A DNA stretch of 64,000 bases from Pseudomonadota bacterium (lineage in GTDB: Bacteria; Pseudomonadota; Alphaproteobacteria; Kiloniellales; Kiloniellaceae): the NCBI GenBank assembly GCA_039028695.1, contig JBCCHN010000005.1, forward strand, positions 5,444 to 69,443, written 5' to 3'. This document shows positions 29,423 to 40,468 of the stretch, one piece after another. The notes beneath the pieces were generated by a model. That model saw only the letters and a program-made list of their open reading frames with translations. It was not told the DNA's origin and searched no databases. Position 1 is the stretch's first letter. Each line of letters starts with the position of its first letter. A program made the translations under genes and the position numbers.

Positions 29423-30448
29423 ATGAGCGACAACGTCACCGAGTTTGTGCCGCCGAAGGAAAAGCCAGACAACGCCCTCCCCGACCAGGACCTGATCCGC
29501 GAGGATTTTGCCGACCTCAGACGCCATCTCAAGGGTCGGATCGTCGGGCAGGAAAAACTTGTTGATCGACTAATTCTGGCTCTTCTGGCCGACGGTCATC
29601 TCTTGGTCGAAGGAGCGCCCGGCTTGGCCAAAACCAAGGCGATCAAGGAGCTCTCCCGGGCCATCGACGGCGAAGATCATCGCATTCAATTCACGCCCGA
29701 CCTCTTGCCCGCCGACCTGACGGGTACGGATATCTACCGGCCCGAAACGGGCACTTTCACCTTCCAGCCCGGCCCTGTTTTTCACAACCTAGTCCTCGCC
29801 GACGAGATCAATCGGGCACCGGCCAAGGTTCAGTCCGCCCTTCTTGAAGCCATGGCCGAGCGCCAGGTCACCGTCGGCCGCGAGACCTACCGTCTGCCCA
29901 AGCTATTCATGGTCATGGCAACCCAAAACCCCCTTGAGCAGGAGGGCACCTACCCCTTACCGGAAGCCCAGCTCGATCGATTTCTCATGCATCTGCGTAT
30001 CGGCTATCCGGATAGTGAGGCCGAGCACAAGATCCTTAAGTTGGTCCGGGGCGAAGCACGGGGCGAGATCGCGGCACCCGATAAGGTTCTGCCACAGGCC
30101 AGGATTTTCGCGGCCCGCGACCTGGCTCTAAAGACCTATATGGCGCCTGCCTTGGAGACCTACCTGGTGCAGCTGGTTATCGCGACCCGCCAACCCGAAG
30201 CGTACGGTGATGAGCTGAACGGCCTGATCCGCTGTGGGGCCAGCCCACGGGGCTCTATCTCCCTAGACCGAGCCGCGCGCGCCCATGCATGGTTGCGCGG
30301 GGCTGATTTCGTCGCCCCTGAGGATTTGCAAGCGGTGGTGAAGGATGTTCTGCGCCACCGGGTACTCTTGACCTTTGAAGCCGAGGCCGACGGCATGACC
30401 ACAGATGGGGTTCTGGATTTGCTCATAAATCGAGTACCCCTCACCTAA
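29423..30448 (+). CDS. MoxR-family AAA+ ATPase (AAA_3)
   Basis: 341 aa. Walker A LVEGAPGLAKTK, Walker B/MoxR signature LVLADEINRAPAKVQSALLEAMAERQVT. GAGGAA RBS. Confidence 0.92.
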   Translation: MSDNVTEFVPPKEKPDNALPDQDLIREDFADLRRHLKGRIVGQEKLVDRLILALLADGHLLVEGAPGLAKTKAIKELSRAIDGEDHRIQFTPDLLPADLTGTDIYRPETGTFTFQPGPVFHNLVLADEINRAPAKVQSALLEAMAERQVTVGRETYRLPKLFMVMATQNPLEQEGTYPLPEAQLDRFLMHLRIGYPDSEAEHKILKLVRGEARGEIAAPDKVLPQARIFAARDLALKTYMAPALETYLVQLVIATRQPEAYGDELNGLIRCGASPRGSISLDRAARAHAWLRGADFVAPEDLQAVVKDVLRHRVLLTFEAEADGMTTDGVLDLLINRVPLT

Positions 30449-30478
30449 CCTTTTAAATTCCTCACCTGATCGATATCC

Positions 30479-31456
30479 GTGGAAAGCCACATGCAGGATC
30501 TTTATGGCATCGTTGCCGGCATTGATGAATTGATAGCCATGCGGCCGGTCCAAGGCCGCAGCGCCATGGCACCCACACGTGCTCTGCGAACCCGCCAGGC
30601 CGGCCCTTACCGTTCTGCCTTTCGCGGACGAGGGATGGAGTTCGACGAGTCCCGGGCCTATCAAGCCGGTGATGACCTGCGTGCCATCGACTGGCGGGTC
30701 ACCGCCCGCACCGGCCGAGTTCATACCAAGCTTTACCACGAAGAGCGGGAGCGCCCGGTCATGCTCCTAATCGACAGCCGGCCCATGATGCGGTTCGGCA
30801 CGAAGGACTGTTTCAAATCGGTTTTGGCCGCCCGGGCAGCAGCCTGGCTCGCGTGGTCCGCGCGCGATGGCGGAGACCGCATCGGCGGTTTTATCATGAC
30901 GCCGACGGGACTGGTGCAATCCACACCCCATCTCAGTCAGGCCCGTTTGCTGTCCTTCTTGAAGCGAATTGCTCAAGCAACGGAAGAAGACCTCTCTCTC
31001 ACGGCAGTAGTTGACCAAGAAAAACCAAACACCTCGCCTGGCCTCACCGACAGCATAACCCGCTTGCGCCGAGCCATTCGTCCGGGCACTCAGGTTTTTA
31101 TTCTCAGCGACTTCCACGATTTCGATGAAACCACCCGATTGGAGCTAACCCGCCTGAGTTTGAACAACGATGTGGCCTGTTTTTTTATCTATGACGCTTT
31201 GGAAACCAGAATGCCCTCAAAGGGCACTTATCGGATCAGCGACGGCCACGCGGTCTTGACCTTGAACAACCAAAGCAAGGTCTGGCGACAAGGCTATGAA
31301 AATCATTTTCTCAAACGTCGACGAGCGGTAGAAGACCTCTGCCGGCAACGAGGCATCACCTTCTTGCCCATGGAAACCGGACAGGACCCGCGCGAGGTTT
31401 TGCGCTTGGACCAGTTACGCACCGTCTGCCGTCGACCGACAAAAGGCGCTGCGTGA
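30479..31456 (+). CDS. DUF58 domain protein (MoxR partner)
   Basis: Hallmark FDESRAYQAGDDLRAIDWRVTARTGRVHTKLYHEE. Start uncertain: GTG 30479 or ATG 30491. Confidence 0.85.
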   Translation: MESHMQDLYGIVAGIDELIAMRPVQGRSAMAPTRALRTRQAGPYRSAFRGRGMEFDESRAYQAGDDLRAIDWRVTARTGRVHTKLYHEERERPVMLLIDSRPMMRFGTKDCFKSVLAARAAAWLAWSARDGGDRIGGFIMTPTGLVQSTPHLSQARLLSFLKRIAQATEEDLSLTAVVDQEKPNTSPGLTDSITRLRRAIRPGTQVFILSDFHDFDETTRLELTRLSLNNDVACFFIYDALETRMPSKGTYRISDGHAVLTLNNQSKVWRQGYENHFLKRRRAVEDLCRQRGITFLPMETGQDPREVLRLDQLRTVCRRPTKGAA

Positions 31457-31971
31457 TGGAAAACTCCACAATCGATCGTGGCCTCACTCAACTGAGGGAC
31501 ATTCATTTGCCCGACCCGGTTCTTATTTGGCCCCCAGCTATGGGCTGGTGGATTCTCGCCGCCATCATTATGGCATTGGTAGTTGCCCTGTGGCTCGGCA
31601 TTTTCATTCGGCGCCGCGGTCTAGCCCATCATGCTCTCAAGGAGCTCTCCCATCTGGAAAAAGATCGGAGCGGCCACGGCGACCTTCAATCCTTCGCCAC
31701 GGCCGTTTCGGGCTTGCTGCGCCGGGTGGCCCTGGCCCGCTATGGGCGCAGTCGAGTCGCCAGCCTCACTGACCGGGATTGGCTGCAATTCCTCAGCCAA
31801 AGCGGCCGCACTCAACGATCGAGCCATAGTTGGAACGGCGACGCGGGCCGCCTTTTGGCCATCGCCCCCTATGCGCCACCGGGCGCCCTGGAAATCAAAC
31901 AGCTTGGTTTTAACGTTACCCGCCAATCCCTGGCGGAAGCGGCACGGGGTTGGATCAGGAAAAACACATGA
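31453..31971 (+). CDS. DUF4381 membrane protein
   Basis: LRDIHLPDPVLIWPPAMGWWILAAIIMALVVALWLGIF shows the typical DUF4381 single TM near the N-terminus. Its start overlaps the DUF58 stop (GTGATG). Confidence 0.75.
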   Translation: MMENSTIDRGLTQLRDIHLPDPVLIWPPAMGWWILAAIIMALVVALWLGIFIRRRGLAHHALKELSHLEKDRSGHGDLQSFATAVSGLLRRVALARYGRSRVASLTDRDWLQFLSQSGRTQRSSHSWNGDAGRLLAIAPYAPPGALEIKQLGFNVTRQSLAEAARGWIRKNT

Positions 31972-32984
31972 TTGAGTTTCTCTGGATCTGGGCTTTTCTA
32001 CTCCTGCCCCTGCCCTATTTGGTGCGAAGAGTCTTGCCACCGGCCGGGGAAAGCCGCTCGGGCGCACTACGGGTGCCTTTCTTCGGCAACCTGAACCGCG
32101 AATTTGGTAAAACCGGAAACTCAAAAAGGCACAGATGGAATAGCTTATTTTTCTTGTCCCTTATTTGGATTGCACTGGTAACGGCAGCGGCTCGTCCGAC
32201 CTTTGTGGGAGAACCCATGCCCATTCCGACAGAGGGACGAGATCTCATGATGGCCATCGACCTCTCTGGCAGCATGGGTCGACAAGACTTCTCCATGGGC
32301 GGAATACCTGCTGATCGGCTCACCGTGGTCAAGGACCTGGCCAATGACTTTATTGCCCGGCGGGAGGGTGACCGGGTCGGCCTGATTCTCTTTGGGACAC
32401 GGGCCTACCTCCAGACGCCTGTCACCTTTGATCGCACGACTGTTCAGGCCTTTCTTGATGACTCCCACGTTGGGCTTACCGGTGAAGAAACCGCCATCGG
32501 TGATGCCATCGGACTAGCCGTCAAGCGCCTGAAAGACCGACCCAGCGACAGCCGCGTCCTGGTGCTGCTCACCGATGGCGCCAGCAATGCCGGCGTCCTG
32601 GATCCCCGTCAGGCCGCCCAGTTGGCCGCTGACGAAGGCCTGCGTATTTATACAATCGGTGTAGGGGCCGATCAGATTGCCACCAACGGGACCTTCGGCC
32701 GGGCCATCGTCAATCCATCCATGGATCTGGACGAAGCGGCTCTGCAAGATATCGCTCAAATCACTGGCGGTGCCTATTTCCGCGCTCGCAACCTGGAGGG
32801 TCTGGCCAATATCTACCGGGAAATCGACCGACTGGAGCCCACCAGCGGCGAACCGCAATACCTCCGTCCCACCAAAGCGCTCTTTTACTGGCCTCTGGGA
32901 ATTGGCTTGCTGTTATCTTTGGCCTTAGGCGTAACCAAGCTATGGCCCGCGAGCCTCACGCTGGGCACCGCGTGGAGGACGTGA
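31968..32984 (+). CDS. VWA-domain membrane protein, BatA-like
   Basis: N-terminal TM, MIDAS DLSGSM, TAIGDAI, LLTDGASN, C-terminal TM. The ATG at 31968 overlaps the upstream stop (ATGA). Confidence 0.85.
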   Translation: MIEFLWIWAFLLLPLPYLVRRVLPPAGESRSGALRVPFFGNLNREFGKTGNSKRHRWNSLFFLSLIWIALVTAAARPTFVGEPMPIPTEGRDLMMAIDLSGSMGRQDFSMGGIPADRLTVVKDLANDFIARREGDRVGLILFGTRAYLQTPVTFDRTTVQAFLDDSHVGLTGEETAIGDAIGLAVKRLKDRPSDSRVLVLLTDGASNAGVLDPRQAAQLAADEGLRIYTIGVGADQIATNGTFGRAIVNPSMDLDEAALQDIAQITGGAYFRARNLEGLANIYREIDRLEPTSGEPQYLRPTKALFYWPLGIGLLLSLALGVTKLWPASLTLGTAWRT

Positions 32985-32988
32985 TGCC

Positions 32989-35079
32989 ATGATCCCCTCG
33001 GCCTTTCATTTCCTCCGCCCCGAGTGGCTGTTGGCCTTGCTACCTCTGGCTATCCTCGTCTTCGCGGCCTGGCGCCGCGGCCAAGGCCAATCCACCTGGC
33101 AAACGCTGGTAGATCGCCATCTGCTCAAGCACCTCCTAATGCAAGAGGACGGCAAACGTCGACGCTGGCCTCTGGGCCTATTGGCTTTGGGGTGGCTGGC
33201 CGCCGTGCTAGCCTTGGCAGGCCCGGCGTGGGAGCGCCTGCCCCAACCCGCCCATACCGTCATGGCGCCAACCGTGGTGGCCCTTAATCTTTCCCAGTCC
33301 ATGAATGCCACGGACGAGAGTCCCAGCCGCCTGACCCGGGCCAAGCATAAGATCTATGACCTGATAGACCGACAAAAGGGCGGCCAGATCGGCTTGGTCC
33401 TCTTCACGGATACGGCCTTTACCGCCGTGCCCTTGACTGACGACGGCGCCGTGATCAGCGAGCTTTTGCCGTTGGTGGATACAAGCCTGATGCCAGATCT
33501 GGGCGCCAGGGTGGATCTTGCCATCGAACAATCGACAGCTCTTCTCAGCCAGAGCGGCGCACCCAGCGGGCAAATCCTTCTCCTCTCCGATGGCATGACC
33601 GGCGGCCAAGCCGCGGCAGAAAGGGCAGCCGGCCAAGCCACGGATAGCGGCTATTCTTTGGGCATCATCACTTTGGGCAAGCCTGAGGGTGGCGCGGTTA
33701 TGGACCATAAGGGTCGCCCGGTCTTGGACAGCCAGGGTGGATCCCTTTATTCAGTGCCCAACATCGCCGCCTTCCACCAATTGGCCGAAGCCGCCGATGG
33801 TCAGATTAGCGCGATCACGCCTGACGACGGTGACCTCAATCAGGTTCTCGCCACACCGCAAGAAGACCTCTTAGCGCCCACAGAAAGGGACGGTGCGATG
33901 GAAGCCGATAGTTGGCGGGACATGGGGCTTTGGCTCGTTCTCATTCCCGTAGCCCTGGCTCCCTTGGCCTTTCGCCGGGGCTGGCTCGCCGTCGTGGTCC
34001 TCTCGGCCGGAATGGGGCTGGGCCAAACAGGCAAGCCCGCTTACGCCTCTAGTGCGACGTTGCCGCCGCTCGACTCCTGGACCGACCTCTGGCAAACAAA
34101 AGATCAACAAGGCGCGCGGGCGCTCTCAGAAAAAAATCCAACAGCTGCCGCCCATCTGTTTGAAAACCCCGATTGGAAAGCGGCTGCCCTTTACAAATCT
34201 CAAGACTACGATCAGGCCGCCGCACAATACGAAAAACTGGGGGGAAAACGGAACCTCTATAATCTGGGCAACGCACGGGCAAAATCCGGCGACCTGGAAG
34301 GCGCCATAGCGGCATATGATGAACTATTGGCACAGCAACCCGACCATGATGACGCGCGTTTTAACCGGGATTTGGTGCAAAGTCTTCTGGATCAACAGGC
34401 CAAACAAGAAGAAAGCAAAAGTAACGAAAGCAGCCAAGACACCGCAAACCAATCGCCGGAACAACAACAGCAGGAACAGGCTCAAGGCGATCAGGCTCAG
34501 GGCGATCAGGCTCAGGGCGATCAGACTCAAGATCAACATTCCACGAACGCTCAAGAAGATAATCAAACCAATAATGGGGCGGATCCCAACGCCCAGGCTC
34601 AAAAGGAGAAAGATCAATCTCAAGATCAGTCTCAACAACAAAGCAGCGCGTCTGGGGCCGACAGCACGGCGGAACAGACACAATCGAGCCAATCGACAGG
34701 CAACCACGCGCCTAAAGACAATCAACAGGATGAGCCCTCCTCCGGTGTGAGTGAAGAGGAGACCTCGGGCAAAGGCTCTCAGCCCGACGAGCGTGAGCCG
34801 TCAGCGATCCAAGAAGCCCAAGACCTGCTGAAAGACTCTCTCGACAGCCTGCTGGACCCGCTGCTTGCCGAACCCCAAGAAGACAAGGGCGCAGAAAACA
34901 CAGCTGAATCTGAGAACCACGCCATGGCCGCGCCAGAGCAAAAGCCCATGAGCGAAAATCAACAGGCGCGAGAACAGACCTTACGTCTAATCCCCGATGA
35001 TCCCGCCGGACTCTTACGCGCCCGCATTCACCGACATTACGCCCAGATGCCCCCGGCAGACGGCTTACCTAATCAATAA
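32989..35079 (+). CDS. VWA plus TPR fusion protein (BatB/BatC-like) with a Gln/acidic low-complexity tail
   Basis: N-terminal TMs. VWA with a variant MIDAS (NLSQSM, Asn in place of the first Asp) and LLLSDGMTGG. TPR segment YDQAAAQYEKLGG...GDLEGAIAAYDELLAQQPDHDDARFN. Then about 200 aa rich in Q/D/E/S. Confidence 0.85.
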   Translation: MIPSAFHFLRPEWLLALLPLAILVFAAWRRGQGQSTWQTLVDRHLLKHLLMQEDGKRRRWPLGLLALGWLAAVLALAGPAWERLPQPAHTVMAPTVVALNLSQSMNATDESPSRLTRAKHKIYDLIDRQKGGQIGLVLFTDTAFTAVPLTDDGAVISELLPLVDTSLMPDLGARVDLAIEQSTALLSQSGAPSGQILLLSDGMTGGQAAAERAAGQATDSGYSLGIITLGKPEGGAVMDHKGRPVLDSQGGSLYSVPNIAAFHQLAEAADGQISAITPDDGDLNQVLATPQEDLLAPTERDGAMEADSWRDMGLWLVLIPVALAPLAFRRGWLAVVVLSAGMGLGQTGKPAYASSATLPPLDSWTDLWQTKDQQGARALSEKNPTAAAHLFENPDWKAAALYKSQDYDQAAAQYEKLGGKRNLYNLGNARAKSGDLEGAIAAYDELLAQQPDHDDARFNRDLVQSLLDQQAKQEESKSNESSQDTANQSPEQQQQEQAQGDQAQGDQAQGDQTQDQHSTNAQEDNQTNNGADPNAQAQKEKDQSQDQSQQQSSASGADSTAEQTQSSQSTGNHAPKDNQQDEPSSGVSEEETSGKGSQPDEREPSAIQEAQDLLKDSLDSLLDPLLAEPQEDKGAENTAESENHAMAAPEQKPMSENQQAREQTLRLIPDDPAGLLRARIHRHYAQMPPADGLPNQ
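34477..34536 (+). repeat. 15-bp in-frame tandem repeat (3 near-identical units plus 1 degenerate)
   Basis: CAGGCTCAAGGCGAT, CAGGCTCAGGGCGAT, CAGGCTCAGGGCGAT, CAGACTCAAGATCAA. Encodes QAQGD x3 then QTQDQ inside the BatB/C-like gene. Confidence 0.85.
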
Positions 35080-35092
35080 AAAGAGATCCCCC

Positions 35093-36994
35093 ATGCTCAG
35101 CATCAGGTCCATTCGCACTCTAATAGCCGGCGGCGTCACAGCCATCGCAATCTCCGCCACCGCCGCTTGGGCGAGTAACCTTGAAGCAGACTTGGATCGC
35201 AGCGCTATCCGTAGCGGCGAATCCGTGACTTTGATCCTCAGCTTTAAAGACGGCACTCCCTCAGGTCAGCCAGATCTGTCGGCCCTCGAAGAAGACTTCC
35301 TTGTGCTCAACAGCAAACAACGGGAGCAGACCAGCATTATAAACGGTGAGCAAAATCAATCAGTGGACTTCGTCCTGTCCCTCGAACCCAAGCGGATCGG
35401 TGCACTAAAAATACCGGCCATCACCTGGTCTGGCCAGAATTCCCCGCCCCTCACTCTGCTAGTCGCCAAGGCGGCCAATCCGTCCGAGGACGGCTCCACA
35501 CCTGACCTTTTTCTCGAAGTGGAGTTGGACAACAGCGCCCCCTTTGTACAAAGCAACATCGCCTATACGGTTCGCGTCTATGACGCCGTTGGCTTGCGTC
35601 GTGGCGTCTTGTCGACACCGAATATCGAAGGCGTTGTGATCACGCCTCGCGGCGATGACCGGCACTTCGAAACAGTCCTCAACGATCGGGCCTACAAAGT
35701 GGTGGAACGCAGCTACACCCTGCGCCCGCAAAAAAGCGGCAAGCTCGATATTCCCCCAGCAGTTCTTCAAGGCAAGATCAAAGACCCCAATGAAAAGCGG
35801 CGTGATCCTTTCGCACGCCTGGGCAAAATGGGGAACTCAAGCCTCTTCAACGACCCCTTTTTTAGTCGGGCCTTCGGGAACAGTGCATTCTCGGATTCCT
35901 TGCTGGATAAATTTTTTGCACCCGGTCGGGATGTTCGGGTCACTTCCGAGCCCATCTCCTTGGATGTCCAGCCGCGGCCCAGTGGGGCAACGGGCTGGTT
36001 TCTGCCAGCCTTGGATGTCAAACTCAGTGAGCGATGGGACCCGGCACCGCCAACCTTTCGGGTGGGCGAGAGCGTAAATCGGCGTTTGGTTTTGCAGGCT
36101 CATGGTGCCGCCGCCGAGCAGCTGCCCACCATCGTCGCCCCCCAGGTCGAGAGATTGCGGCAATATCCTCAATTGACGGAAGACCGGACCATCGATACAC
36201 CCGATGGTCCTCTCGCCATCCGCGAACAGATCTTTTCGATTGTACCCACCCAGGCCGGCGAGATCACATTGCCGGAAATCGTCGTGGAGTGGTGGGATAC
36301 GACGGAGGAAGCAGCCAGGACCACGGTGGTGCCCGAGCGGGCTATCACTGTTTTACCTTTAATCGGTGGGACAAACGTAGTGTCCCCTGAGTCCTACCTC
36401 ACCGAAACGCCACCCTTAAATCGCCACGAGATAGAAACGACCTCACAATCCGGCAGCACCCTCTATTTACCCAACAATTCCTGGATCTGGGGCGGGATGA
36501 CCCTCGCATTAATCCTCGCGTCATCGCTTGCTGTGGGTGCCGTGTTAGCCCGGCGGCAGCGATTAACGGCAGGTGCCCACAACGAGGGCTGTCAGGATCT
36601 GCATCACGACCAAAACGAAGCAGTCGCAGCCCTGCGAGTGGCTTGCCGGGAAAACGATCCCCTTAAGGCGGTACAGGCATTACTTGCCTGGGGCCGCAGC
36701 ACTTGGCCGGGGGGCCAGAATTCCAAGTCAAACGGGGGCGGCTCAACTCTTTCAGTGGCGGAGATGGCTAAGCGGCTGGAAGATCCGGATTTTGCGCAGG
36801 CTGTGGACGATTTGGTTCGTTGTCTCTATGCGCCCAACCAGGGTCGGAGCCAACTGACCTGGCGGGGCGATCACTTTTGGGATCACTTTAAAAGAATACA
36901 AGGTCGCGCGGCACGGTCAAGAAAAGTCACCCGACCACAGGGCCTCCCGGCGCTTTATCCCGAATTGGCAAATAAAGGCGCCACAAGCTTTTAG
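35093..36994 (+). CDS. BatD-like protein
   Basis: Signal peptide MLSIRSIRTLIAGGVTAIAISATAAWA, a large extracytoplasmic region, and a C-terminal TM (WIWGGMTLALILASSLAVGAVLA). Last position in a Bat-type operon. Start at ATG 35093. Confidence 0.75.
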   Translation: MLSIRSIRTLIAGGVTAIAISATAAWASNLEADLDRSAIRSGESVTLILSFKDGTPSGQPDLSALEEDFLVLNSKQREQTSIINGEQNQSVDFVLSLEPKRIGALKIPAITWSGQNSPPLTLLVAKAANPSEDGSTPDLFLEVELDNSAPFVQSNIAYTVRVYDAVGLRRGVLSTPNIEGVVITPRGDDRHFETVLNDRAYKVVERSYTLRPQKSGKLDIPPAVLQGKIKDPNEKRRDPFARLGKMGNSSLFNDPFFSRAFGNSAFSDSLLDKFFAPGRDVRVTSEPISLDVQPRPSGATGWFLPALDVKLSERWDPAPPTFRVGESVNRRLVLQAHGAAAEQLPTIVAPQVERLRQYPQLTEDRTIDTPDGPLAIREQIFSIVPTQAGEITLPEIVVEWWDTTEEAARTTVVPERAITVLPLIGGTNVVSPESYLTETPPLNRHEIETTSQSGSTLYLPNNSWIWGGMTLALILASSLAVGAVLARRQRLTAGAHNEGCQDLHHDQNEAVAALRVACRENDPLKAVQALLAWGRSTWPGGQNSKSNGGGSTLSVAEMAKRLEDPDFAQAVDDLVRCLYAPNQGRSQLTWRGDHFWDHFKRIQGRAARSRKVTRPQGLPALYPELANKGATSF

Positions 36995-37041: not shown

Positions 37042-38550
37042 TTAGCCTTCGTCGAAGTCTCGCCGGGGACCGTAAGCATTTTCATTTCGGGTTAAGGGCC
37101 ATGGCAATCCGTACTTCTCGGCCAGAGCCTTCAGGTTCTCTTCCTTGGCGTCGCGGCTCGGCGCCGAAGTAGGCGTTTCGTGCGCCGCATCAGGCGGTGA
37201 TATGGCTTTCGGTGCGCCGGCATCAGCTTCTTGAGCGTATCTTCCATAGGGGCTGCTGGGCCGTGTTTGGTCTTCCGACGATATGGCGGACACCGGTGTA
37301 ACCGGCGTGTGCTCGTCAGTTACGATGGACCGAGCCGGAGCACTCACCTCAGGCTCCTGTTTCATCGACGAGCCTCCTTTAAGCAAGTTAACGATCTTGC
37401 TCAATTCATCCTGGTTCGAGAAGTGAATGGTCAATTTGCCCTTGTTGCCTTTTTGCGAAACTGTAACCTTCTGACCCAAAAGTTCGGTGAGAACCGGCTC
37501 AAGGGCTTCACCGCCGCGGCGGTTGCCGGACTTAGCCTTGGACCCGCTAACCGTCCCCTGGGATTTGACAAGTTCTTCGGTATCGCGGACGCTCAGACCT
37601 TTCCTGACAATCTCTTGGGCGATCGAAAGGGCCCCATCACAGCCCACCAGGGCGCGGGCATGGCCGGCAGACAACTCGCCATCCTGAATCATCGCCTTTA
37701 CCTCAGGCGGTAAGCTCAAAAGGCGAAGCGTATTGGTGACATGGCTGCGGCTCTTACCCAGGGTCCGGGCCAAGCCTTCCTGGTTATGATGGAAATCCTG
37801 GATCAGTTGTTGATAGCCTTCTGCCAGTTCCAGAGGCGTCAGGTCCTCGCGCTGAAGGTTCTCAATTATCGAGACCTCGATTGTCGCATTGTCCGCCAGT
37901 TCACGAACCAACACCGGTACTTCGCTTAGGCCCGCCATCTCTGCCGCACGCCACCGCCGTTCACCCGCGACGATCTCGAACTCCCCTACCTTATAGCTGT
38001 GATGGCGTACCAATATCGGCTGTAACATACCATTTTGCAGCAAGGATTCAGCAAGACCCTTCAGGGTCTCACTGTGAAACGCCCGGCGCGGTTGACGCGT
38101 GTTGGGATGGAGTTTGGCCACGGACACCATCTCCATCTGAAGAGAATCGGTCAGATCGTCCAGGTCCTCATCTTCATCCTCATAGAGATATGCGCCCTGA
38201 TTTTCCGGCGGCTCAGTTTGCTGACCGACACCGGTCGCGGTGTCGCCTTGCAGACCCAGCTCTTCCTCCCATTTCAGGGCCCGTTCCAAATAGGAAAAGG
38301 GCGGCTCTTGGTCGCCCGAGCGCGCCTTATCCTGCTCGGTCACTTCGCGGGGGCCGGCTGCTTGCTCCCTTTCAAGATCCCAGTCGCTGCCTAAGGGCTG
38401 AGGGCTCTGATCCGAACCTTGCGGCTCCAACCAAGATGGCGACCCAGGGGCGTCCAATACGGCCGCCGATGGCTCATCCTCCTCACGGCGGATGCGCTTT
38501 AAGGCATTCAAGGGCTCAGATTTTAACTTGCGGGAAAATAGGTTAGCCAC
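37042..38550 (-). CDS. ParB/Spo0J-type partition protein with long N- and C-terminal extensions; no adjacent parA
   Basis: 502 aa. ParB box LQPILVRH...EIVAGERRWRAAEMAGL. HTH and flanks LARTLGKSRSHVTNTLRLLSLPPEVKAMIQDGELSAGHARAL. C-terminal dimerisation-like KGKLTIHFSNQDELSKIVNLL, followed by about 110 extra residues. About 150 extra acidic residues at the N-terminus. Confidence 0.85.
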   Translation of the reverse strand: MANLFSRKLKSEPLNALKRIRREEDEPSAAVLDAPGSPSWLEPQGSDQSPQPLGSDWDLEREQAAGPREVTEQDKARSGDQEPPFSYLERALKWEEELGLQGDTATGVGQQTEPPENQGAYLYEDEDEDLDDLTDSLQMEMVSVAKLHPNTRQPRRAFHSETLKGLAESLLQNGMLQPILVRHHSYKVGEFEIVAGERRWRAAEMAGLSEVPVLVRELADNATIEVSIIENLQREDLTPLELAEGYQQLIQDFHHNQEGLARTLGKSRSHVTNTLRLLSLPPEVKAMIQDGELSAGHARALVGCDGALSIAQEIVRKGLSVRDTEELVKSQGTVSGSKAKSGNRRGGEALEPVLTELLGQKVTVSQKGNKGKLTIHFSNQDELSKIVNLLKGGSSMKQEPEVSAPARSIVTDEHTPVTPVSAISSEDQTRPSSPYGRYAQEADAGAPKAISPPDAAHETPTSAPSRDAKEENLKALAEKYGLPWPLTRNENAYGPRRDFDEG

Positions 38551-38770
38551 GGGTCACCCCTTTTAGTTTTACCTTCGCCTGGAGTGTCCTCGATCCTCTT
38601 CGGCGAACAAAATCTGGATAAAGGTTAAAAAATATTGGTTAAGTACGGATTAAAAAACCCCGCTTCATGCGGCGAATTGGGCAGGGGCAAAAATACCCCG
38701 AACAGCGCGGAAAAGGCCCGAATCGCTGAGGTCTTGCGCAATATTAGAAAGCCGTGAAGGAGGCAAAATT

Positions 38771-39355
38771 CTATTTAACTTCCGGCAAGTTGTATTGTTG
38801 GGCAATTTCTCTGGCGCGAACCTGATCGGTCTGATTTAGAAGCGACCAGACAATATCCATGTTCTCTTGCACGTGGCTCTCTCCGGAAAGATAGGCACGG
38901 CCATACCAGATGTAAGCCTCGCCATAGTCCTGCTTGACGCCCAAACCTTGAGAGTAGAGGTAGCCCAATATTTCCATGGCCTGAGGATCGGCGTTTGCCT
39001 CCGCCCGATTATGGATAAAGGCCACGTCTTCATCGTCGAGGGACTGGGGGTCTCCCGATTCCAAAAGCCGCAACCATCGAACATCGTCCGCGGTGATTTG
39101 CGGGCCGAACATTTCCGCCTCTTCCACGGCATAGAGGCGACGATCGGCAGCGATGGACTCACACCACTGCGGTGCCCTCCAGGCATAGCGGCAAGCATAG
39201 GCCCGCATGGCCGGCGATGACTTTTGCCAAAAGGAGTGTTCCCAAGGCGATTGCGAAATGGGTTCCGCTTTAGCGTCATGATGAAAGGTAGCCAGGGGCA
39301 AAAAGGACAAAGCCATTGCCATTAGCACCCATCTCAACCCTTTGATTCTGCACAT
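38771..39355 (-). CDS. Sel1-repeat (SLR/TPR-like) exported protein
   Basis: Signal-like MCRIKGLRWVLMAMALSFLPLATFHHDAKA. Sel1 motif MEILGYLYSQGLGVKQDYGEAYIWYGRAY. Start chosen at ATG 39355; the ORF-track TTG is at 39391. Confidence 0.7.
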   Translation of the reverse strand: MCRIKGLRWVLMAMALSFLPLATFHHDAKAEPISQSPWEHSFWQKSSPAMRAYACRYAWRAPQWCESIAADRRLYAVEEAEMFGPQITADDVRWLRLLESGDPQSLDDEDVAFIHNRAEANADPQAMEILGYLYSQGLGVKQDYGEAYIWYGRAYLSGESHVQENMDIVWSLLNQTDQVRAREIAQQYNLPEVK

Positions 39356-39656
39356 TTGCGGTGATCGAACCCTTAAATCTCGCATTCCCAAGGCGACGCG
39401 CCAGCCGGTGATCCAGCTGGCCTTATGCCACCGGAGCTAAGGTGTAGTGACTTTTGGTTAACACCTTCTTTCACGACACGATTTAAACAGGGCGGACACT
39501 CTAAATACTGGAATGCGGACAAGCGGACCCTTTTGTCCATTGACGAGGTACATTTCATCTTTGCTTAGGGATAAGCCTTAAGGCTCCTTTAAGAGGTCTG
39601 ACCACAATATTTATGGACGCAGACCTTGTTTTTTTGCCTTAAGAGAGCGGAGCGGG

Positions 39657-40057: not shown

Positions 40058-40468
40058 CTATTTTCCAGCCTTGTCCCCGGCTTGCTCGCGGCTTACCAGG
40101 TCGGTGATCTTCACGGCCACCCGATCCTCGACGACGACGACCTCCCCGCGGGCGACCAAGCTCCCGTTGACGGTGAGATCGATTTGATCACCAACACCGG
40201 TTTCAAGCTCAACCACCGCGCCACGCCCCATACGTAAAAGCTGACTGACCGGCATGGAGGCCGTTCCCAATATCGCGTAGGCGTCCAAGTCGACCTCATT
40301 TATCGCTGAGTCCAAATCCAATTGGCGATTGGCCAAAGCACCTGCCTGACCGGGCGCTGGCGCCAATTCCTGACCTTCAGGTGTTTCGTCCCCGTCATCA
40401 GGCTTAGAATCCGCATCGTCCTGAGACACTGCTTCGGCTTGGCCGGTTTCTTCTTCATCAGGCTGCAT
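40058..40468 (-). CDS. fliN: flagellar motor switch protein FliN (SpoA domain)
   Basis: 136 aa. Acidic N-terminus, then MPVSQLLRMGRGAVVELETGVGDQIDLTVNGSLVARGEVVVVEDRVAVKITDLV. Confidence 0.85.
   Translation of the reverse strand: MQPDEEETGQAEAVSQDDADSKPDDGDETPEGQELAPAPGQAGALANRQLDLDSAINEVDLDAYAILGTASMPVSQLLRMGRGAVVELETGVGDQIDLTVNGSLVARGEVVVVEDRVAVKITDLVSREQAGDKAGK

Follow-up and report, generated by a model that had tools for sequence, protein, structure and literature searches.

The stretch of DNA analysed here, the window, comprises 64,000 nucleotides of contig JBCCHN010000005.1 from a Kiloniellaceae genome (Alphaproteobacteria; assembly GCA_039028695.1), and our subject is a gene within it that encodes a ParB paralogue without an adjacent parA, the orphan parB. 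The original prediction, made from the sequence of the window, described a ParB of 502 amino acids at 37042-38550. The open reading frame list and the translation bear this out, with 502 codons on the minus strand, a point the prediction had left unremarked, from a GTG start at 38550-38548 to a stop codon, counted in the coding sequence, at 37044-37042, and the product is matched by both Pfam and NCBIfam models. The motifs quoted at the time, GERRWRAAE, GKSRSHVTNTLRLLSLP, and GHARAL, are all found in the translated protein. The gene neighbourhood also agrees with the prediction. A Sel1-repeat gene (38771-39391, minus) precedes the orphan in the same orientation, BatD is encoded convergently downstream (34997-36994, plus), and Pfam annotation of the neighbouring genes reveals no parA in the vicinity.

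A Shine-Dalgarno-like AAGGGG (38557..38562, minus) lies 6 nt ahead of the GTG. This element, the GTG, and the first residues are all retained in the orthologue from the same-genus genome G001, which begins MASLFARKFK where the window protein reads (M)ANLFSRKLK and which likewise sits behind a Sel1 gene. Together with the proportion of nonsynonymous differences (pN) of 0.14 against a synonymous proportion (pS) of 0.58 over residues 66-100, this conservation rules out a mis-called start, which had been raised as a possible source of the N-terminal extension. A terminator-like hairpin with a T-run follows the Sel1 gene (38659..38676, minus) and, although it is a pattern match from a consensus scan only, it suggests that the orphan parB is probably transcribed from its own promoter. 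The GC content of the gene is unremarkable, no integrase or tRNA flank was found nearby, and no parS-like or other palindrome was found near the gene.

The core of the protein is that of a canonical ParB/Spo0J, as had been claimed, with ParB_N, HTH_ParB, and ParB_C all matched. The N-terminal CTPase domain (PF02195; residues 138-233; 37852..38139, minus) is matched at 1.5e-32, the helix-turn-helix (HTH) DNA-binding domain (PF17762; residues 235-330; 37561..37848, minus) at 1.4e-33, and the C-terminal dimerisation domain (CTD; PF23552; residues 349-391; 37378..37506, minus) at 1.4e-9, the last scoring 37.7 bits against a cut-off of 23.8. The CTD has the family form ..KVTVS..G.LTIHF.. in alignments and is modelled with a predicted local distance difference test score (pLDDT) of 87-91, and the NCBIfam model TIGR00180 (parB_part) gives 181.6 bits against a cut-off of 58. 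In AlphaFold predictions the core exceeds a pLDDT of 90, while the linkers fall below 50. Box I (QPR), Box II (GERRWRA), and Box III (ENLQR) of the CTPase domain are invariant in alignments with canonical ParBs, the invariant residues being Q153, P154, R155, G196, E197, R199, W200, A202, E230, N231, and R234, with R198 nearly so. The best solved relative is the Caulobacter ParB 6T1F (8e-59), and a Foldseek comparison with this ParB-parS structure gave a TM-score of 0.85, a root mean square deviation of 2.5 Å, and 50% identity.

The residues that read the DNA point to a parS binder. According to Jalal et al., R173 and G201 (Caulobacter numbering) are the parS-specific residues, the Noc or Noc-binding-site (NBS) signature at positions 173/179/184/201 is Q/K/K/R, and positions 179 and 184 are free to vary among parS binders (PMC7383237). 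In the alignment with 6T1F these four positions are R268/T274/S279/G296 in the orphan, which is the parS type. The parS-contacting residues Q257, G265, K266, S267, R268, N273, T274, S279, G296, and R299 are kept, and all of the conserved contacts Q162, G170, K171, S172, N178, and R204 (Caulobacter numbering) have their counterparts. From the specificity residues and the contacts together we infer that the orphan binds parS rather than an NBS-like site. At the sequence level the protein retains all the features of a DNA clamp that loads at parS and is gated by CTP: the CTPase boxes, recognition residues of the parS type, and the dimerisation domain.

The genome as a whole (5.56 Mb in 255 contigs, 99.8% complete) contains three ParB_N matches, and a Soj-type ParA is encoded immediately upstream of one of them, on contig C24, in the order mnmE-mnmG-rsmG-parA-parB. 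This canonical ParB carries the peptide LGRGLAALFG and is 41% identical to the orphan. Perfect copies of parS, TGTTTCACGTGAAACA, occur twice in the whole assembly, at C24:29635 and C24:29765, both in or beside rsmG and directly upstream of parA (open reading frame from ~C24:30410). No further parS-like site was found in the assembly within two mismatches, matches at three mismatches were no more numerous than in scrambled controls, and none lies near the orphan gene or on its contig. The suggestion that this might be the only ParB, or that the genome might have an unusual par locus, is refuted by the canonical locus with its two perfect parS sites, and the orphan is, as first proposed, a second ParB paralogue that belongs to no par operon. 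The third ParB-like gene, which opens a 17-kb contig (G000:C111:~280-1095; L003:145-1095), is divergent, its product sharing 29% identity with the orphan, and may come from a plasmid or mobile element.

The 2025 survey of ParB-CTPases defined the ParA-binding motif as [LFI]G[KR]G[LFI] (PMC12704722), and a regular-expression search for it found no match in the orphan protein. The place of the canonical LGRGL motif is occupied by a basic peptide, which we term N1. No ParA-family gene flanks the orphan or its relatives in the four contexts available, which are the window, the P0066 contig, the P0110 contig, and locus L155; on the P0110 contig, gyrA-C and a cytidylyltransferase-family (CTP_transf_like) gene lie upstream of the orphan relative. 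The orphan thus lacks both the canonical ParA-activating motif and an adjacent parA.

These observations bear on the idea that the protein is a partition or positioning adaptor for a remote ParA-family ATPase, in which a diverged N-terminal peptide, with a basic residue around position 7, would serve as the activator of an orphan ParA, MinD, or MipZ-type ATPase that positions a replicon or other cargo. Activators of ParA are usually basic N-terminal peptides, and FSRKL in the window protein and FARKF in G001 fit the pattern [LFI]x[KR]x[LFI], in which the glycines of the ParA motif have given way to other residues. Candidate targets exist in the genome, which has genes for at least 8 orphan ParA-family ATPases and for two MipZ paralogues. 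However, no gene of the ParA family adjoins the orphan in the four contexts, parS-like sites are missing from its surroundings and from its contig, the N-terminal peptide is poorly conserved in the family, and the second MipZ does not co-occur with the orphan. We consider such an adaptor unlikely. The two MipZ paralogues are full length (G000:C161:9519-10298, minus, and G000:C87:18235-19017, plus; 353 and 282 bits), and two copies are also present in G001, in Pelagibius, and in several other genera of the family. Co-occurrence of the second copy with the orphan ParB was considered and rejected, since Pelagibius genomes have two MipZ and no orphan.

Beyond its core, the orphan carries long terminal extensions in which short conserved peptides alternate with rapidly diverging linkers. 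The N-terminal extension had been put at about 150 acidic residues; an extension is indeed present, but it amounts to 137 residues before ParB_N and is of mixed charge rather than uniformly acidic, with a net charge of +6 over residues 1-22 and -26 over residues 23-137. Since the canonical ParB of the same genome already has ~45-50 residues in this position, the net extension is ~90 residues. The first 22 residues form the N1 peptide, (M)ANLFSRKLKSEPLNALKRIRR (38485..38550, minus), which is ~48% identical to G001 over residues 1-25. A second block, N2, lies within the acidic linker at residues 66-100 (38251..38355, minus), reads GPREV..PFSYLERALKWEEELGL, and is conserved in the G001 alignment as GPREV..PFSYLE.AL.WEEE.GL, with 71% identity and a pN of 0.136. 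The linkers on either side of N2 retain 25% (residues 26-65) and 38% (residues 101-137) identity. Within the acidic linker the G001 protein (L166, G001:C476) has an insertion of ~60 residues rich in Trp/Glu repeats (WSEETWSEETWSEEGW), at residues ~100-160, which the window protein lacks, and this shows that the length of the linker evolves rapidly.

At the other end, the estimate of about 110 additional residues rich in Pro, Ser, and Ala proved accurate, with 111 residues (392-502) of that composition following the CTD. Most of this tail is a disordered linker (residues 392-468; 37147..37377, minus; pLDDT <50) with 21% identity to G001 and a pN of 0.56. It is followed by a conserved peptide, ..ENLKALAEKYGLPWPLTRNENAYGPRR (residues 469-497; 37060..37146, minus), which is kept in G001 and in the metagenomic members of the family, where the signature is L..LA..Y.LP.P..(W)NE.AYGP. 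Residues 469-489 are 81% identical to G001, and LKALAEKYGLPWPLTRN (ENAYGP) is identical in the two proteins. For comparison, identity to G001 is 67% overall, 81% in ParB_N (residues 138-233), 90% in the HTH domain (residues 234-330), 33% in the linker between HTH and CTD (residues 331-348), and 72% in the CTD (residues 349-391). AlphaFold predicts helices at residues 2-24, 87-97 (within N2), and 466-479, the last with a pLDDT of 71-90. No other protein of the genome contains the tail or N2 peptides, so there is no hint of a partner from shared peptides.

The pattern of constraint indicates that the extensions, with their start and peptide blocks kept in G001, are genuine rather than artefactual, as the original prediction had argued for the C-terminal one. 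Because synonymous sites are saturated between the window and G001, we report pN and pS instead of dN/dS, the ratio of nonsynonymous to synonymous substitution rates. The pN is 0.08-0.10 in the core, 0.14 in N2, and 0.12 in the C-terminal peptide, whereas it reaches 0.5-0.56 in the linkers, which shows the gene to be under purifying selection, its three short tail blocks included. Judging by these differences, the orphan parB is a real and selectively maintained extra copy of ParB.

This bears directly on whether the gene is a decaying or selfish duplicate, for example a mobile-element remnant, with no cellular role. Such an origin would fit its occurrence in a single genus among 40 relatives and the frequent association of orphan ParBs with mobile elements (PMC12704722). 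The MoxR-DUF58-BatA-BatB-BatD operon that flanks it convergently (29423-36994), with BatD encoded by its last gene, is also absent from other genomes; no BatD homologue was found in the 30 others of the family searched, including a same-genus draft (91% complete). Decay is difficult to reconcile with a reading frame intact in two species despite saturated synonymous divergence, with the low pN of the core and the constraint on the tail peptides as well, with the ordinary GC content and lack of a nearby integrase or tRNA flank, and with a conserved promoter element, described below. We regard this explanation as very improbable and reject it on the selection data.

The family to which the orphan belongs is small. 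Among the 40 related genomes an orthologue is present in G001 only, and the other genomes of the Kiloniellaceae and of the same order show no ParB beyond their canonical one, fusions aside. No close homologue was found among 5.8 billion proteins. Several metagenomic proteins of 371-436 amino acids carry the C-terminal signature L..LA..Y.L..P..WNE.AYGPK and lack LGRGL, a metagenome scan recovered six further family loci, and P0127, P0128, and P0133 are additional members. When a profile of the CTD and tail was run against 1.84 billion cluster representatives (clusters at 50% identity), about seven clusters were recovered at E ≤ 1e-10. Searches of the contigs of representative genomes with single proteins and with the C-terminal profile recovered no family member, and a degenerate DNA scan of the genome contigs for the NENAYGP peptide returned chance-level hits alone among the matches listed. 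At the N-terminus the other members have a loose MANxxxRxL-like motif, such as MANTAQRNL or MANSDPRKP.

A phylogeny had been proposed as a check, and a tree placed the orphans apart from the canonical ParBs with a Shimodaira-Hasegawa approximate likelihood ratio (SH-aLRT) support of 90-94, with the caveat of long branches. All members, and the looser relatives P0066 and P0005, share the replacement E242L in the HTH domain ('LELA' in place of the canonical 'LEEA'), which in these alignments is a synapomorphy marking the orphan family.

The promoter element lies upstream of the gene. At 38638..38653 (minus), 88 nt before the GTG, the sequence TTAATCCGTACTTAAC matches TTAA-N7-TTAAC, which we take from the Caulobacter literature to be the consensus binding site of CtrA, a regulator of the cell cycle and of motility. 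An alignment of the upstream region with that of G001 shows a single conserved island in otherwise diverged DNA, and this island holds the box. The G001 sequence at the aligned position is TTAATCGCCAGTTAAC, in which the half-sites are kept and the spacer has diverged. The box is listed at -103 in the window and -143 in G001. In the lineage of L150, L152, L154, and L155 it stands at -135 to -137, as it does in the distant relative P0066, where no other TTAA-N7-TTAA is present in 17 kb. The box therefore recurs in three lineages of the family.

Across the genome, TTAA-N7-TTAAC occurs 38 times in 5.56 Mb versus 10-19 times at other spacings of 3-12 nt, an enrichment of ~2.7-fold, and TTAA-N7-TTAA occurs 62 times versus 22-45 at other spacings. 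Other sites with the 7-nt spacer lie upstream of flgI, cheZ, a DUF2336 gene, a gene for a SleB-like hydrolase, and a LemA gene, and the genome encodes a CtrA orthologue (425 bits against a cut-off of 350). At the canonical parAB locus there is no TTAA-N7-TTAAC. In Rhodospirillales-grade Alphaproteobacteria flagellar genes are under the control of CtrA, which is dispensable there (PMC8116508). The position, conservation, and recurrence of the box make the orphan parB a well-supported predicted member of the CtrA regulon. Our literature search returned nothing relevant on CtrA-regulated ParB paralogues.

A second TTAA-N7-TTAA (TTAAGGCTCCTTTAA) is present at 39578-39592 of the window, between the divergently oriented genes for Sel1 (start 39391, minus) and PilZ (start 39657, plus), and a solitary fliN-like gene (40058-40468) adjoins this Sel1-PilZ region. 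The Sel1, PilZ, and orphan ParB genes may constitute a small cluster with CtrA boxes.

Known members of the superfamily offer points of comparison. With Caulobacter crescentus ParB (6T1F/7BM8) the orphan shares the three-domain architecture, 50% identity over the N-domain and HTH, and all of the CTPase boxes and parS contacts. It differs in lacking an LGRGL-type motif, an adjacent parA, and a nearby parS, and in having a mostly acidic region of 137 residues before the first domain, a 111-residue tail ending in a conserved peptide, a short linker between HTH and CTD, E242L, and a CtrA box in its promoter. Unlike a canonical chromosomal ParB, it coexists with a bona fide ParB. Orphan ParBs are a known and common class, and most of those surveyed have diverged, are associated with mobile elements, or are fusions with enzymatic domains (PMC12704722, PNAS 2025), so the bare observation of one more is unsurprising. 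With those proteins the window protein has in common ParB similarity including the CTPase fold, a location outside parAB, and the lack of a ParA-binding motif, but it is full length and nearly canonical as a ParB, its disordered tails bear peptides, and its gene has a conserved CtrA box. We found no description in the literature of a near-canonical, parS-type ParB paralogue that combines conserved terminal peptides with a family-wide CtrA box.

Noc of the Bacillota (TIGR04285) deserves closer attention, since the original prediction had mentioned a Noc-like role and since Noc is a precedent for the repurposing of ParB duplicates (PMC8429893; PMC12704722). Like the orphan, Noc is a ParB duplicate with an orphan gene in which the coupling to ParA has been lost, and the basic and hydrophobic N-terminal peptide of the orphan sits where Noc has its membrane helix. 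A membrane tether or nucleoid-occlusion factor of this kind would use a basic amphipathic N-terminus to bind the membrane upon CTP-dependent closure of the clamp, holding DNA at the envelope. Residues 2-11, ANLFSRKLKS (ASLFARKFKA in G001), do resemble the N-terminal FSRFF peptide of Noc. AlphaFold places a helix over this segment, with low confidence, and the peptide of G001 is similar to that of Noc in both hydrophobic moment and hydrophobicity. In the window protein, though, the peptide is weakly hydrophobic with modest amphipathicity; it is not conserved across the wider family, and a polyanionic linker of 115 residues separates it from the clamp. With 213.6 bits the protein stays under the cut-off of 315 for the Noc model, and the specificity residues R/T/S/G are those of parS binders, not the Q/K/K/R of Noc. 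There is no dispersed set of binding sites but two cognate sites alone, both at the origin-proximal par locus. The orphan is in addition alphaproteobacterial, is encoded away from the par locus, and has N2 and C-terminal peptides that Noc lacks. A specifically Noc-like role is thus not supported, and we judge a membrane tether of this sort improbable.

PadC, KorB, VirB, and BisD likewise set a precedent for ParB-fold CTP switches that serve as scaffolds or regulators and not as ParA-driven centromere proteins, although their similarity to the orphan is far weaker (KorB 1.3e-12; PadC ~2e-5 by Foldseek) and their DNA sites and partners differ. Several orphan ParB-like proteins are reported to be CTP-gated regulators (PMC10770331, PMC12409273). 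By analogy, the orphan might be a CTP-dependent sliding clamp of the KorB, VirB, or BisD type that loads at parS within and beside rsmG and modulates transcription of parAB or of nearby promoters, and the position of both parS sites directly upstream of parA would suit such a regulator. Here too the match to KorB is weak next to that to ParB (8e-59), no KorA-like partner is evident, and transcriptional regulation leaves the conserved terminal peptides unexplained. Regulation of this type overlaps with the function we favour, set out below, and does not exclude it; taken by itself it seems to us a rather unlikely account.

We favour the reading of the orphan as a functional, neofunctionalised ParB paralogue, an accessory parS/CTP clamp timed by CtrA and serving as an adaptor, and we put its probability at roughly one in two. 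The generic proposal of the original prediction, a CTP-switch paralogue recruited to another function, is still the best reading of the sequence data, and the loss of the ParA motif, the conserved terminal peptides, and the family-wide CtrA box sharpen it. The orphan is, in short, probably a repurposed centromere clamp. In the model that we propose, CtrA would turn on the orphan parB together with the motility and late-cell-cycle regulon. Together with CTP, the protein would load at the two parS sites adjoining parAB and slide from there, acting next to the canonical ParB or competing with it, and it would not activate ParA in the canonical way. Its terminal peptides would instead recruit another partner to the centromere or origin region, or modulate the partition complex or the expression of parAB. 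Candidate partners would include factors located at the pole or in the membrane, ATPases of the ParA/MinD type such as MipZ, SMC, and protease adaptors.

Several observations weigh against this accessory clamp. The CtrA box is only a match to a consensus; the copy in the window shares bases with the T-run of the terminator-like hairpin, and that at the family locus L149 has a mismatch at one base. Position 184 (Caulobacter numbering) is either Ser or Asn within the family, and E242L together with the short linker between HTH and CTD could change the behaviour of the clamp. An AlphaFold prediction of the CTD and tail alone was shallow, its mean pLDDT of 52 being too low to place the tail peptide relative to the core. 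The FSRKL of N1 could be a degenerate activating peptide of the ParA type, so the statement that the orphan does not drive a ParA stays a proposal. The family, finally, is rare and confined to one genus within its family of genomes, and its gene neighbourhood is not conserved, which makes an accessory or horizontally moved gene possible.

A more elaborate form of the accessory-clamp model may be put forward tentatively, and we hold it to be rather doubtful. The orphan would here be a Noc-style neofunctionalised ParB of a rare alphaproteobacterial lineage, a second parS clamp timed by CtrA, with a WNENAYGP-type tail that tethers the origin to a polar or envelope partner. A second clamp on the same parS sites that is unable to activate ParA would, in motile cells or late in the cell cycle, cap the partition complex or remodel it. 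The CtrA programme of motility and the cell cycle would in this way be coupled directly to the behaviour of the centromere.

ParB domains fused to signalling domains occur elsewhere in the order. An Hpt-ParB fusion of 608 amino acids is encoded in G025 (L163:720-2543, plus) and in G034 (L164), which belong to the same order but to another family. Its N-terminal Hpt phosphotransfer domain (PF01627, 1.3e-12) is joined through a long linker rich in Pro and Ala to a complete ParB with N, HTH, and C domains, and it lacks LGRGL; a canonical ParB is also present in both genomes. Upstream of these genes there is a conserved CtrA-like box with one mismatch, TTAATGCGAC[AG]GTAAC. A second type of fusion, of 788 amino acids and likewise without LGRGL, is encoded in G027 (L165:110-2473, minus; C1:~690.6-693.0 kb), beside which the genome also encodes a canonical ParB. 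This protein has ParB_N and HTH_ParB, a hydrophobic and apparently membrane-spanning stretch, and a C-terminal HATPase_c, an ATPase domain of the histidine kinase type. The Hpt-ParB and ParB-histidine kinase fusions hint at signalling inputs to centromere-bound clamps.

To our knowledge, the ParB-CTPase paralogues characterised so far are few; they include Noc, PadC, KorB, VirB, and BisD, and each of them showed a new use of the CTP switch. The rarity of the orphan family restricts its general importance. If the accessory-clamp model is true, this organism would provide a natural case of two different clamps on one centromere under cell cycle control. It would also make the remodelling or anchoring of partition complexes in the Alphaproteobacteria more accessible to study.

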